The notes under the pieces were generated by a model, which was given only the letters and a program-made list of their open reading frames with translations, did no database searches and was not told the origin of the DNA. Positions 36,538-41,488 of a stretch of DNA of 64,000 bases are shown here, piece after piece (position 1 is the first letter of the stretch; every line of letters starts with the position of its first letter). The DNA is from SAR86 cluster bacterium SAR86B (GTDB lineage: Bacteria > Pseudomonadota > Gammaproteobacteria > Magnimaribacterales > D2472), in NCBI GenBank assembly GCA_905181955.1, contig CAJJAC010000010.1, forward strand, positions 1,620-65,619, written 5' to 3'. The translations under genes were made by a program, and so were the position numbers.

Positions 36538-36585
36538 TATAGGAGTATGATCAAAATCTAATTTGATTTAATATACAAACTTAAC

Positions 36586-36668
36586 TGCAAAGGGGTGGTC
36601 ATTCTGACCTGAGATCTTCATAGGGACCCTTTGAACCTGATCCATTTAATAATGGCGGAGGAATTGCA
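36586..36668 (+). promoter_or_regulatory. TPP (THI-box) riboswitch
   Basis: TGCAA-AGGGGTGG...CTGAGA...ACCCTTTGAACCTGATCCATTTAATAATGGCGGAGGAA-TTGCA. The conserved GGGGUG, CUGAGA and ACCCUUUGAACCUGAUC...UAAU...GCG.AGG.A blocks are present. P1 is UGCAA/UUGCA. Confidence 0.9.
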
Positions 36669-38776
36669 TGAATATCATCAAAACTAGTCTATTTATTTCT
36701 TTATTTCTTTCTTTTTTTAGTTCTCAATTAATATCTGAAACTATCGAAGAAATTACTATTAAAGGCGATTGGCGTCAAACTTCAGCAGATCAAGAAGATT
36801 CAAGCGTTTTGGTGCTTAATGAGGAAACTATTAAATCTCAGCCTCTTAAACACTTCGAACAACTTTCATATTTAGTACCTAATTTAAATTTTGCAGCCAG
36901 CGATTCAAGAGCGCGTTATTTTCAGATTAGGGGTATTGGAGAGAGATCTGGGTATCAAGGAACTCCTAATTCGTCAGTTGGTTTTCTTATAGATGATATT
37001 GATTATTCAGGACAAGGAGGAATTGCAACAACTTTTGATCTAGATCAAATTGAAATATATAGAGGCCCCCAAGGATCTAGAATTGGTGCGAATGCTTTAG
37101 CTGGACTAATTTATATAAAAACTAAAGATCCAACAGATAAATTTGAAGGGACTAGTGAAGTGACTATAGGATCTTATGGGACTAAAAGTGCAGGTGTTGC
37201 TTTTGGTGGACCTTTTGAAGCAAATAGTGATCTTTCATACAGACTGGTTTTAAGAAAAGATAAATCTAATGGTTATAGAAAAAATTTATATCTCAATAGA
37301 TCAGATACATCAAGAAAGGATGAAACCACCGCTCGCTTAAAAGTGAATTGGAAACTTGATGATAAGACATCAGTTGATTTTTTAGTTATGCAGGTTGATA
37401 TGGATGACCCCGCTGATATTTGGACCTTGGATGGAAGTTTAAATACTCTTTCTGATAGACCAGGAATGGACTCACAAAAGACCAATGCTTATGGATTAAA
37501 AGTATTTCGTGCATTTGATAGCTTTGAACTTCAAAGTCTTTCAAGCTCAACAGATACTAGTGTGGTTTTTAGTTATGATGCTGATTGGGGTAATACAGAC
37601 TCTCATGCACCCTATACATATGACTATTTCTCAGAGACATTAAGAGATAGAAGCTCATTTAGCCAAGAATTTAGACTAGTTTCAGATAAAGCAGACTTTT
37701 TAACCAATAATCTTATTGAATGGGTTGCCGGAATAAACTATTTAGAGTTAAAAGAGACAAATTTGAAATACGACGATGGTATTTACGGCGATCCATCAGA
37801 TCCTTATGGACCTTATACCAGCGAATCATCATCCTCAAGCTCATATAAATCAGAAAACTTGTCATTTTTTGGAAATGTAGATTATCTTCTTTCAGAGTCA
37901 ACGAAGATCTCTTTAGGTTTGAGAATGGAAGACTGGGAGTCAAAATATTTTGATTCTTTTGGAGAGTCTTTTAATCCGTCGAATGATATGTCGGGAGGAA
38001 AAATATCTCTAATAAAAAATATAAAAACTGGATCTAATATTTTTATTAGTATTGCTAAAGGATATAAACAAGGTGGATTCAATCTTGGTTTAGGTTTGGG
38101 TGGCGATGTCACAAATAAAGATCTTACATATGATCCAGAATTTCTTACCAATTATGAAATAGGTATTAACTCAAGAATTTTAGATTCCAGATTAAATATT
38201 GAAAGTGTTGTATTTTATTCTGACAGAGAAGACCAACAAGTTTTAATATCAACTCAAGTAGATCCTAAAGATCCAAATACTTTTTCCTTCTTAACTCAGA
38301 ATGCTGCTGAGGGAGTTAACTATGGATTAGAAATAAATCTTGATATGGAAGTTACGACTGATATTAATATATTTGCTAATGTTGGAATCCTTAAAACTGA
38401 AATAAAAAATTGGCAGTCTCGACCTGACCTTGAAGGAAGAGCACAAGCACATGCTCCAGAAAAAAGTTTTGCACTTGGCATAAATTGGTCTCTAACATCA
38501 AAGACTTATCTGTCAGCTGATGTGACAGGCAAGAGTGAATTTTATTACTCAGATTCTCATAATAATAAATCTAAGTCATATAACTTAATGAATATTAATT
38601 ATGGCTATAAAAATAAAGATTGGAGCTATACCTTATGGGTAAGAAATGTCTTTGATACCTACTATTCAGTAAGAGGTTTTTACTTTGGAAATGAGGCACC
38701 AAATTTTGAAGATACATTATATGAGAGACATGGAGATCCTAGGCACTCTGGAGTGTCAGTAAGATATGATTTCTAG
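36668..38776 (+). CDS. TonB-dependent outer-membrane receptor, TPP-riboswitch regulated (thiamine or precursor uptake)
   Basis: Signal peptide, TonB-box/plug region (IEEITIKGD...IEIYRGPQG), C-terminal ...VRYDF beta-barrel terminus. Confidence 0.9.
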   Translation: MNIIKTSLFISLFLSFFSSQLISETIEEITIKGDWRQTSADQEDSSVLVLNEETIKSQPLKHFEQLSYLVPNLNFAASDSRARYFQIRGIGERSGYQGTPNSSVGFLIDDIDYSGQGGIATTFDLDQIEIYRGPQGSRIGANALAGLIYIKTKDPTDKFEGTSEVTIGSYGTKSAGVAFGGPFEANSDLSYRLVLRKDKSNGYRKNLYLNRSDTSRKDETTARLKVNWKLDDKTSVDFLVMQVDMDDPADIWTLDGSLNTLSDRPGMDSQKTNAYGLKVFRAFDSFELQSLSSSTDTSVVFSYDADWGNTDSHAPYTYDYFSETLRDRSSFSQEFRLVSDKADFLTNNLIEWVAGINYLELKETNLKYDDGIYGDPSDPYGPYTSESSSSSSYKSENLSFFGNVDYLLSESTKISLGLRMEDWESKYFDSFGESFNPSNDMSGGKISLIKNIKTGSNIFISIAKGYKQGGFNLGLGLGGDVTNKDLTYDPEFLTNYEIGINSRILDSRLNIESVVFYSDREDQQVLISTQVDPKDPNTFSFLTQNAAEGVNYGLEINLDMEVTTDINIFANVGILKTEIKNWQSRPDLEGRAQAHAPEKSFALGINWSLTSKTYLSADVTGKSEFYYSDSHNNKSKSYNLMNINYGYKNKDWSYTLWVRNVFDTYYSVRGFYFGNEAPNFEDTLYERHGDPRHSGVSVRYDF

Positions 38777-40178: not shown

Positions 40179-40655
40179 CTAATTTAAGAGAAAAAATACA
40201 GCTAAAGACCCTATAACAAGCAATAGAAGCAAGTTATCATCAAAAATATCAATTAACTTATCTTTTGTAGGCAATCTTAGTGATCTTATATATTCCATAT
40301 CTAAATATTCATCCAAAAACCCTTCTTTAGCATCACTTTTACTTAGATCTTGAGTAATACTATCTTCTTTTATGCTAGTTGTAGTTGTTATTGACTCGTT
40401 TGACATTGCTTCATGCTCCAAATTATTATTAATATTGTTAGTCTCACCTGTACCCATAGCCTCTAATGATACTAATTCTGCCAGAATTTTATCTCTTTTT
40501 ATTCTAGCTATTAAAATATCAGAAGTTTCTAACGATTTTTTAATGAAATCTTTACCAATTACCTCTGATACTTTTCTTGAAACTCTTTTTTGAATAAAAT
40601 ATATATCCTTATTTTTACCCCTTAAAACAAGGTATTTATCATCATTTGTACTCAT
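40179..40655 (-). CDS. Hypothetical tail-anchored protein; N-terminus resembles the N-terminal domain found on some tyrosine integrases (DUF6538-like)
   Basis: YLVLRGKNKDIYFIQKRVSRKVSEVIGKDFIKKSLETSDILIA fits the Y-L-x-R-G-x-Y-Y-F-x-x-R-V-P...GK..I..SL.T.D...A pattern. This is followed by a low-complexity acidic/Ser/Thr linker and a C-terminal TM helix LLLLLVIGSLAVFFLL. Confidence 0.45.
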   Translation of the reverse strand: MSTNDDKYLVLRGKNKDIYFIQKRVSRKVSEVIGKDFIKKSLETSDILIARIKRDKILAELVSLEAMGTGETNNINNNLEHEAMSNESITTTTSIKEDSITQDLSKSDAKEGFLDEYLDMEYIRSLRLPTKDKLIDIFDDNLLLLLVIGSLAVFFLLN

Positions 40656-40793
40656 ATTATACTTAAGTATTGCTTATTTGTACTCATAATATACTACATT
40701 CTTTTTTTTAATTCAATAAAATGTACTCATAATATTATATATGTACTCATAATGGTTATAATTCTAAGAAAAAAGACATTATGTACCCATAAA
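40647..40793. repeat. Five direct copies of TGTACTCATAAT(AT) in the divergent intergenic region
   Basis: Copies start at 40647, 40679, 40722, 40742 and 40782 (the last is degenerate, TGTACCCATAAA). Copy 1 contains the start codon of the 40179-40655 gene. Confidence 0.85.
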
Positions 40794-40834
40794 TCTTATA
40801 TATTATTTTATATCAGTTGTGCAATAATAATATT

Positions 40835-41488
40835 ATGAAAGTATCTGAAGCAGTCGCATCAAGAAAATCTATTAGAGAGTTTTTAAAAACTCCAGTTGAA
40901 AACAGTCTAATAAAACAATTACTAGAAAAGTCAGCTAGAGCAGCTAATGGCGGTAACTTACAACCATGGCAGATATTTGTTATAAATAATGAAAGCATGT
41001 CTGCATTTTTAAAACACCAGTCTGAATGGACTGATCCTGAAACCTCTGCTTACAACATATATCCATCTAGTCTTAAAGAGCCCTACAGAACCTCTAGATA
41101 TCAGCTTGGAGAGCAAATGTATTCTTTGCTTAATATTAGTAGAGACGATAAGGAAGCGCGTTTTATGCAAGTACTAAAAAACTTTGAATTTTTTGGAGCT
41201 CCTACTGCTATTTTTTGTTTTGTAGATAAACAAATGGGTCCACCACAATGGTCTGATTTAGGAATGTTTCTTCAAACCTTTATGCTTTTAGGACAAGAGG
41301 AGGGTTTAGATACGTGTGCTCAAGAGGCATGGTCTATGAAGCAAGAGAGTGTTAGTGACTTCTTCCAGGTCGATGATGAGACTATGTTGTTCTGTGGGAT
41401 GTCTATTGGTTATAAAGACCCTGAAGCTCTAATCAATCAATTAGATAGCGAACGTCGCCCTGTAGATGACTGGGCTACTTTCGTATAA
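40835..41488 (+). CDS. Nitroreductase-family flavoprotein
   Basis: RKSIREF N-terminal motif, NGGNLQPW, and family-typical length. The ATG at 40835 is preferred over the upstream TTG at 40817. Confidence 0.8.
   Translation: MKVSEAVASRKSIREFLKTPVENSLIKQLLEKSARAANGGNLQPWQIFVINNESMSAFLKHQSEWTDPETSAYNIYPSSLKEPYRTSRYQLGEQMYSLLNISRDDKEARFMQVLKNFEFFGAPTAIFCFVDKQMGPPQWSDLGMFLQTFMLLGQEEGLDTCAQEAWSMKQESVSDFFQVDDETMLFCGMSIGYKDPEALINQLDSERRPVDDWATFV

Follow-up and report, generated by a model that had tools for sequence, protein, structure and literature searches.

A helically phased array of 9-bp repeats at the gene of a tail-anchored integrase-N-domain protein of SAR86 bacteria: a candidate membrane-tethered, self-regulating DNA-binding module

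The 64,000-nucleotide stretch analysed here (the window), from the SAR86 cluster bacterium SAR86B (GenBank assembly GCA_905181955.1, contig CAJJAC010000010.1, positions 1,620 to 65,619, forward strand), contains an open reading frame (ORF) for a 158-amino-acid (aa) protein, ORF158, whose upstream region and start codon carry direct repeats of the 9-mer ATGRGTACA. Few uncultured bacteria of the surface ocean are as abundant as SAR86, and very little is known of how it regulates its genes. The N-terminal domain of ORF158 is homologous to the N-termini of tyrosine integrases. The repeats are specific to the locus, conserved between species, helically phased and selected as nucleotides, and they associate with genes encoding this domain. 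From these comparisons we regard it as moderately probable that ORF158 is a domesticated, membrane-tethered arm-binding domain and that the ATGRGTACA copies are its operators, which would serve autoregulation and possibly capture of the locus at the membrane. The coordinates of the features are given in Table 1.

A reading of the window made from its letters alone (the sequence-only reading) had described five copies of the repeat, at 40647, 40679, 40722, 40742 and 40782, spaced by 32, 43, 20 and 40 bp, the first of them holding the start codon of the 158-aa ORF (40179-40655, minus strand). Reading and searching the window again, we found these positions, the spacings and the placement of the start codon to be correct. 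However, only the copies at 40679, 40722 and 40742 are perfect as the 12-mer TGTACTCATAAT; the copy at 40647 (TGTACTCATATT) differs from it by one mismatch and the copy at 40782 (TGTACCCATAAA) by two, and a sixth copy, inside the ORF, had been overlooked. The core common to the five copies is the 10-mer TGTAC[CT]CATA, which on the coding (minus) strand gives the 9-mer ATGRGTACA. It had also been claimed that every copy reads Met-Ser-Thr (ATGAGTACA), which fails for the 40782 copy (ATGGGTACA, Met-Gly-Thr). Six exact ATGRGTACA sequences are present in the 64-kb window and 6/6 are at ORF158 (shuffled sequences have a mean of 0.18, and 0/100 shuffles reach 6), while away from this gene the window contains one-mismatch variants only at the frequency expected by chance. 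Chance or low complexity as the source of the repeats is excluded by these shuffles. The description of the array as copying the gene start is better inverted: the start codon sits within a putative operator.

We then compared the locus across species, with one genome per GTDB species. The survey comprised 54 loci, nearly all labelled SAR86, the rest being unclassified or evidently mis-binned metagenome-assembled genomes. ORF158 is intact in the 54 species, with 36-100% protein identity, and is never missing from the locus; copies of ATGRGTAC are present in 54/54 loci. In 51/54 species a copy lies on the start codon, despite protein identity down to 36%. One to five further copies per locus are found within 140 bp upstream, and 138/138 of these upstream copies are on the strand of the gene. 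Most loci also have copies inside the coding region, in forward orientation at +198 in the clade of the window and in reverse orientation at +209 to +511 in most others. Relatives of 66-94% identity keep the +198 copy, as either ATGAGTACA or ATGGGTACA, though the adjoining linker-coding sequence varies. For internal sites the evidence was restricted to full 9-mers and to the codon test described below; internal forward 8-mers such as ATGGGTACT in 'DGYF' were set aside, as they may represent a conserved peptide and not a site. Outside the locus, only 4 full 9-mers were found in 927 kb from the 54 species, 2 of these in a duplicated copy of the module (see below).

The upstream copies occupy discrete positions relative to the start-codon copy: -11, -32, -53/-54, -63, -74/-75, -82, -92 to -96, -104/-106, -115 and -134, of which -74/-75 is filled in 25/54 species and -92 to -96 in 29/54. 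Consecutive spacings cluster at 10-11, 18-20, 29-34, 39-44, 51-55, 61-64, 71-74 and 81 bp. A period of 10.25-10.5 bp fits best, with a mean phase of 0 relative to the start-codon copy (Rayleigh p ~1e-5 for 28 distinct positions and 1.5e-3 for 12 position clusters). The helical phasing proposed from the window is thus borne out well beyond it by the 54-species comparison. As 33 distinct arrangements of the array exist among the 54 species and the phase is nevertheless kept, the array has been rebuilt in evolution without leaving its face of the B-DNA helix. The two proximal copies form a tandem, ATGGGTACATT-ATGAGTACAAAT, in most lineages; in the clade of the window the -11 copy has decayed and the -32 copy (copy 2), equivalent to the -11 copy of most other lineages, stands in for it. 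Copy 5 is also present in the closest relatives (L007 and L009).

Codon usage shows that the sites are selected as nucleotides, at synonymous positions. The start reads ATG-AGT-ACA nearly everywhere, while in the flanking genes AGT makes up only 16% of the Ser codons and ACA 40% of those for Thr. Among the Val-Pro dipeptides in the genes of the family, 40/46 are encoded by GTA-CCC following a codon that ends in T and preceding AT, which spells TGTACCCAT, the motif in reverse. The residue before these dipeptides varies (N, D, T, S, Y, F, H or I), so it is the T that is conserved and not the amino acid. By comparison, in a control set of 458 long flanking ORFs GTACCC is used in 4/327 Val-Pro and CCC represents 7% of Pro codons. 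The presence of copies in both orientations, together with the helical phasing, argues for recognition of double-stranded DNA.

The ORF158 protein consists of a DUF6538-type N-domain (residues 1-66), a variable acidic Ser/Thr/Asn-rich linker (~67-108), a conserved juxtamembrane segment (~109-138) and a transmembrane tail; a single residue follows the helix of its hydrophobic C-terminus (NLLLLLVIGSLAVFFLLN). The linker and the C-terminal helix are as the sequence-only reading had them, and the helix is kept in all ORF158 family members aligned. ORF158 has 1525 homologues. An exhaustive HMMER search of 1.8 billion representatives gave only 61 matching clusters, most of which are small SAR86-type proteins of one architecture: a conserved N-domain, a low-complexity linker of varying length, an 'LP-x-K-[DE]...D' segment and a C-terminal hydrophobic helix. 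Three HMMER matches of 426-451 aa are tyrosine integrases, in which DUF6538 is followed by a SAM-like core-binding domain and then by the Phage_integrase domain. The N-domain of ORF158 shares 42-57% identity over 63-75 residues with the N-termini of integrases P0152, P0179 and P0181 (E down to 4e-20), the best match being P0152 (57% identity, E=4e-20); residues L11, G13, D17, R24, S41, T44, A50, R54 and D55 are invariant between ORF158 and the integrase N-domains. This domain order and N-terminal identity place DUF6538 at the arm-type DNA-binding position of heterobivalent integrases. The integrase relatives score 34.6-41.3 bits against Pfam DUF6538 (PF20172), and precomputed annotation assigns PF20172 to ORF158 and to most of its orthologues. 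As had been proposed, no recombinase catalytic domain follows: Pfam and NCBIfam scans of ORF158 detected no Phage_integrase catalytic domain (R..HxxR..Y), and Pfam no SAM-like core-binding domain. DUF6538 is the only Pfam match, with no OmpR-type winged helix (Trans_reg_C), and no periplasmic domain lies beyond the single C-terminal helix.

A split integrase gene of the DUF6538 type, in which the N-domain ORF and a SAM-like ORF are separate, has repeats of its own. At L064:56-140, three direct repeats of TGGAAACAT are found at 64, 87 and 124, the first between the -35 and -10 boxes (TTGACT / TATAAT), the second after the -10 box and the third ending 5 nt before the ATG. A different 9-bp site thus accompanies a different variant of the domain, in the same layout as at ORF158. 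Arm sites of full-length integrases were also sought, but scans of viral contigs with P0152 and a three-integrase alignment gave no usable locus, and L064 is the only one inspected. In one SAR86 lineage (L030 and L046), the ORF158 promoter-operator block and the first ~30 nt of the ORF have been duplicated elsewhere. This second cluster (L030:11255-11300 and L046:6135-6180) consists of three motif copies with spacings of 21 and 11 bp, and lies ~150 bp 5' of genes whose products are a 145-aa secreted protein and one of 106 aa. The duplicated block may be a co-opted control module, which is the behaviour expected of a transplantable one.

A paralogous N-domain (~50% identity to that of ORF158; 52%, E=2e-16 in the direct comparison) forms the N-terminus of the Rieske iron-sulfur subunit PetA of the cytochrome bc1 complex. 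The fusion protein, of 287-289 aa, comprises the N-domain, a linker, a twin-arginine/transmembrane anchor (RRKVLIG...) and the Rieske domain, and its gene lies in the order rplM, rpsI, petA-fusion, petB, petC, sspA. It is abundant in marine metagenomes (the best 120 matches all carry PF20172, PF10399 and PF00355) and is transcribed across the domain junction. Upstream of the petA fusion the 9-mer ATGRGTACA recurs at -158, -63 and -41, and a degenerate version of it is found at -191; neighbouring copies are 33, 95 and 22 bp apart, each a whole number of helical turns, and while the spacers have diverged the sites are conserved. Unlike that of ORF158, the start codon of the petA fusion is not a motif copy. 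The ORF158 and petA loci are the only kinds of array-bearing locus known, and both encode the domain, in both cases tethered at the cytoplasmic face of the membrane. A G+C content of 33%, the gammaproteobacterial gene order and one copy in the single-amplified genome assembly CACPOJ01, whose accession block is next to those of SAR86 single-amplified genomes and which is suggestive only, together suggest that the fusion comes from SAR86. A literature search found no report of a SAR86 Rieske fusion.

Some further observations concern the petA locus. In the rpsI-petA intergenic region (L065:2843-2998), a small ORF of ~48-66 aa starts at the -158 copy (Met-Gly-Thr) behind a Shine-Dalgarno-like AAGGAAG. 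Diverged loci share its first ~15 residues (MGTxNKKxPDIKGxS) but differ there by several synonymous changes, and it may be a real small protein. A reverse match at +665 in petA (L066-L079; TGTACTCAT) encodes Cys-Thr-His of the Rieske CTHLGC motif and was discarded as a coding coincidence. At L063:4250-4400, a long-read, pilon-polished assembly, the fusion is split into a 102-aa ORF and a 180-aa Rieske ORF; as it is continuous in Illumina assemblies, the split looks like a homopolymer frameshift error. Many of the ~100-aa 'DUF6538 proteins' in databases are truncated pieces of the PetA fusion.

The sites could instead be the operators of another regulator, for example of the OmpR/PhoB type, that co-regulates ORF158 and the petA operon, with DUF6538 otherwise employed, such as in protein-protein contacts at the membrane. 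OmpR/PhoB-type response regulators also bind direct repeats spaced by 10-11 bp, and one-turn direct repeats are typical of several regulator families; moreover, a shared factor would explain the presence of sites at two loci, and the evidence that ties the domain to the sites is indirect. However, both kinds of array-bearing locus encode the same rare domain, which would be a coincidence unless promoter and 5' coding region had been duplicated together and both kept. In addition, no further arrays were found in ~1 Mb of flanks, DUF6538 holds the arm-binding position in integrases, and the integrase gene of L064 has its own, different 9-bp repeats, as if each variant of the domain read its own site. 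We therefore think a foreign regulator unlikely.

The predicted ORF158 promoter, which scores 9/12 in a consensus scan, lies between the distal and the proximal copies, and in the window its -10 box abuts the -32 copy. Other lineages have TTGAAA, TTGATA or TTGCAA, 17 bp, and TAAAAT or TAATAT abutting the -11 copy. As the -10 box abuts the proximal copy, transcription is predicted to start within that copy, in the window at about 40680 (+/-3), and to yield a short leader; both the promoter and the start site are inferences from the sequence. ORF158 is transcribed in situ: metatranscriptome contigs from 8 runs cover it and end at 40656-40668, and none of the 8 runs has a contig over 40669-40843, where the upstream copies are. 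An Rfam scan of 40656-40835 gave no match at E<=1, the sole real match in the searched region being a thiamine pyrophosphate (TPP) riboswitch.

These data bear on the possibility that the motif acts in RNA, whether through translated AUG mini-ORFs, through binding of the N-domain to AUGRGUACA on its own mRNA, or through pairing of the reverse copies (UGUACCCAU) with the 5' copy to hide the start. Such a role would suit the sense orientation of all upstream copies, the copy that is the ORF158 start codon, the petA-locus copy that starts a conserved small ORF, the transcription of the petA-locus copies, and the full complementarity of the reverse internal copy to the G-type -11 copy. We nevertheless consider it quite improbable. 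A spacing of ~10.4 bp is meaningless for single-stranded RNA, the conserved promoter is 3' of the distal copies, and in 0/8 metatranscriptome runs does a contig cover the copies upstream of ORF158. Mini-ORFs of 3, 7, 5 and 11 codons, pointed out by the sequence-only reading, are present as sequence, but their translation is not supported, given their varying lengths and sequences between species, the position of the promoter and the lack of RNA contigs there. Pairing was rejected as a general explanation, since reverse copies are wholly absent from the clade of the window, and several of the clades that have them lack an exact -11 copy.

A second proposal of the sequence-only reading was that the locus is the scar of a degraded integrative element, in which a shortened int gene and its residual arm-type sites no longer have any function. 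The N-domain is indeed integrase-derived, and the repeats resemble arm-type sites by an int start. But the ORF is full-length in the 54 species and syntenic in most of them; its N-domain, juxtamembrane motif and membrane helix are all conserved, the sites are under selection at synonymous positions, the gene is transcribed in situ, and there is no catalytic-domain remnant. The nearest tRNA is ~10 kb away, and no tRNA adjoins the locus. Neither was any presence/absence polymorphism of an element found in the 54 species; a core-type inverted repeat was not sought systematically. In practice this conservation refutes the decaying-element reading, which we hold to be extremely improbable.

The first proposal of that reading, a domesticated, membrane-tethered DNA-binding module with an arm-site-like array, gained support from the homology, the co-conservation in 54 species, the phasing, the nucleotide-level selection and the co-occurrence at petA, with binding itself predicted from sequence. 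In the mechanism that we propose, the flexible linker and the C-terminal tail anchor would keep the DUF6538 head on the cytoplasmic face of the inner membrane. The sites lie on one helix face, on a ~10.4-bp lattice: the distal ones 5' of the -35 box, the proximal one at the predicted transcription start, one on the start codon and one or more in the gene. Binding of ORF158 to them would be cooperative and head to tail, and the DNA may loop to the internal site; this binding would occlude the ORF158 promoter, resulting in negative autoregulation, and would hold the same DNA at the membrane. The module probably originated from an integrase gene whose promoter overlapped arm-type sites, with loss of the core-binding and catalytic domains and gain of a membrane anchor, and a sister copy would have been fused to the Rieske subunit PetA. 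The identity of the binding protein, repression and membrane capture of the locus are what we infer here, from the layout of the sites and the homology of the domain.

A more speculative extension, which we think somewhat unlikely, is that the DUF6538 head serves to tie genes to the membrane in which their products reside, the PetA fusion and ORF158 each binding the shared 9-bp sites at its own promoter. Both the bc1 operon and the ORF158 locus would then be physically held at the inner membrane, and the amount of assembled membrane protein would feed back on transcription. A respiratory-complex subunit would act as its own transcription factor, with ORF158 as a soluble-domain competitor or partner, in a cis-acting 'transertion' control.

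Several points weigh against ORF158 as a self-regulating, arm-binding protein. On the side of the protein, its Pfam DUF6538 match (E=1.2e-5, 25.4 bits) is below the gathering score of 27; the match is nonetheless real, and the homology to integrases settles the assignment of a DUF6538-like domain made by the sequence-only reading. AlphaFold2 modelled full-length ORF158 (16-sequence alignment) with a predicted local distance difference test score (pLDDT) of 43, the helix 131-157 being the sole segment at ~72, and the N-domain (43 sequences) with a pLDDT of 63, as two to three short strands and a long helix. Foldseek searches of the PDB with the AlphaFold2 model gave no match at E<=0.001, and profile and sequence searches of PDB sequences with the ORF158 domain gave none; with this low confidence and these empty searches, the arm-binding fold of the N-domain is putative. 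A literature search found no mention of DUF6538 and no characterised DUF6538 domain. On the side of the sites, the survey covered ~1 Mb around the locus in the 54 species, and targets may exist beyond that range. The RNA data for ORF158 are low-depth assembled contigs, not mapped 5' ends, which fit the predicted promoter without proving it; the petA-locus sites are transcribed and may have an RNA-level role there. At both loci the sites could be bound by a different trans-acting factor, the sign of the regulation is guessed from the positions of the sites, and ORF158 and the PetA fusion may belong to different genomes.

Parts of the proposed system have counterparts elsewhere. A precedent is the AP2/ERF domain, in which an arm-type DNA-binding fold associated with integrases or endonucleases was exapted to serve transcription factors as a domain of its own; unlike ORF158, AP2/ERF proteins are soluble and eukaryotic, they have no sequence relationship to it, and similarity of the DUF6538 fold to theirs is not established. 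In PutA-type 'trigger enzymes', a membrane-associated redox enzyme with a DNA-binding domain represses its own operon. PutA is the nearest analogy for the PetA fusion, but it has a ribbon-helix-helix domain and shuttles between DNA and membrane, whereas the PetA fusion is an integral bc1 subunit with a DUF6538 head. As with plasmid iterons and Rep, repeats of the same orientation lie on one face beside the gene of the presumed binding protein, with presumed autoregulation; unlike iterons (17-22 bp, bound by Rep), the ORF158 sites are of 9 bp on a ~10.4-bp lattice, chromosomal and syntenic. Protein scans of the window gave no match to a Rep family; the search did not extend to DnaA boxes or an AT-rich unwinding element.

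Closer still are two classes of regulator. The integrase IntS of prophage KplE1 represses its own promoter via overlapping arm-type sites, a layout predicted for 61.5% of tRNA-linked integrase genes (PMC2951348). ORF158 resembles IntS in having an integrase N-terminal domain and short repeats over its own -35/-10 and start region, and by analogy negative autoregulation would be expected. In contrast to IntS, ORF158 has no core-binding or catalytic domain, att core, recombination partner or mobile element and is membrane-tethered instead, and its array is larger, strictly phased and reaches into the coding region. With ToxR, TcpP, CadC and VtrA/VtrB (PMC9977878, PMC11856585) it shares a cytoplasmic N-terminal head, here putatively DNA-binding, a linker and a single membrane helix. 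ToxR-type regulators bind promoter direct repeats while membrane-bound (PMC9977878, PMC11856585), and capture at the membrane of the locus that they target has been described for transmembrane regulators (PMC9977878). They differ from ORF158 by an OmpR-type winged helix and a periplasmic sensor; ORF158 has DUF6538 and a tail anchor without sensor, and its own gene is the only target seen so far. The ORF158 system would thus work like integrase autoregulation and like ToxR-type regulators, yet it belongs to neither class, having neither recombinase domains and an att site nor a winged helix and a periplasmic sensor.

Taken together, the evidence points to a previously undescribed membrane-anchored, self-regulating DNA-binding module; a literature search returned no report of a bacterial tail-anchored integrase-N-domain protein. 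An integrase arm-binding module would here have been exapted, sites included, as a cellular membrane-anchored regulator. The 9-bp site, the 66-residue domain and the predicted promoter form a testable candidate regulator-operator pair, and they suggest a likely function, sequence-specific binding of direct repeats, for an uncharacterised Pfam domain common at integrase N-termini. The most surprising element is the PetA fusion, a widespread Rieske (bc1) subunit with the same head and the same sites, and possibly a respiratory-complex subunit reading its own promoter. If binding holds true, the fusion would represent a new coupling of respiratory-complex expression to membrane assembly; if the head also ties genes to the membrane, one of the most abundant marine bacteria with streamlined genomes would possess cis-acting control of the 'transertion' kind.

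Table 1. Features of the ORF158 locus (window coordinates) and of the petA fusion loci
Feature	Coordinates	Strand	Details
ORF158	40179..40655	-	158 aa; from ORF list, Pfam, family alignments, metatranscriptome contigs
Integrase-type N-terminal domain, proposed DNA-binding head	40458..40655	-	aa 1-66; homology to integrase P0152 and PetA fusion
C-terminal hydrophobic helix, tail anchor	40185..40241	-	aa ~139-157; from sequence, AlphaFold2, family alignment
Internal operator copy (putative)	40449..40457	-	ATGGGTACA; +198, codons 67-69 (Met-Gly-Thr), N-domain/linker boundary
Operator copy 1 (putative)	40647..40655	-	ATGAGTACA; contains ORF158 start codon
Operator copy 2 (putative)	40679..40687	-	ATGAGTACA; -32, directly 3' of predicted -10, at predicted transcription start
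Predicted sigma-70-type promoter of ORF158	40688..40716	-	-35 TTGAAT 40716-40711, 17-bp spacer, -10 TATATT 40693-40688
Operator copy 3 (putative)	40722..40730	-	ATGAGTACA; -75, 5' of -35 box
Operator copy 4 (putative)	40742..40750	-	ATGAGTACA; -95
Operator copy 5 (putative)	40782..40790	-	ATGGGTACA; -135, 45 bp 5' of divergent nitroreductase ATG
Nitroreductase-family gene, divergent neighbour	40835..41488	+	Pfam; not a constant partner of the array
petA fusion	L065:3001-3870; L078:118-981		also L063, L066-L090, L101, L102

ORF158 lies between a thiamine operon and a nitroreductase/proteorhodopsin locus, as had been described. One flank comprises a TPP riboswitch on the plus strand (36581-36680; 68 bits, E=3e-12), a TonB-dependent receptor gene, a PnuC-like transporter gene and a thiamine-kinase-like gene; the riboswitch ahead of these genes fits an operon for salvage of thiamine or a precursor. 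On the other side, the ORF list starts the nitroreductase gene at a TTG at 40817, but the ATG at 40835 (MKVSEAV...) is likelier and matches the 217-aa orthologues of relatives. Across species ORF158 is usually convergent with the thiamine-uptake operon, and the array always accompanies the ORF, while the upstream neighbour varies (nitroreductase, a 72-aa gene and a desaturase, proteorhodopsin or others) and 7 loci have a wholly different context. Insertion/deletion polymorphism adjoins the array; the ORF is always present. In six loci (L001:2751-3835, L004, L010, L012, L017 and L018) the 72-aa gene and the fatty-acid desaturase gene lie between the ORF and the nitroreductase gene; in many other lineages this pair is found ~7 kb off on the opposite side, and in L048-L050 the gene divergent from the ORF is that of proteorhodopsin. 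At L003:4473-5257 and L018:10475-11279 two ORFs make up the thiamine-kinase-like gene, which is either frameshifted or a pseudogene.

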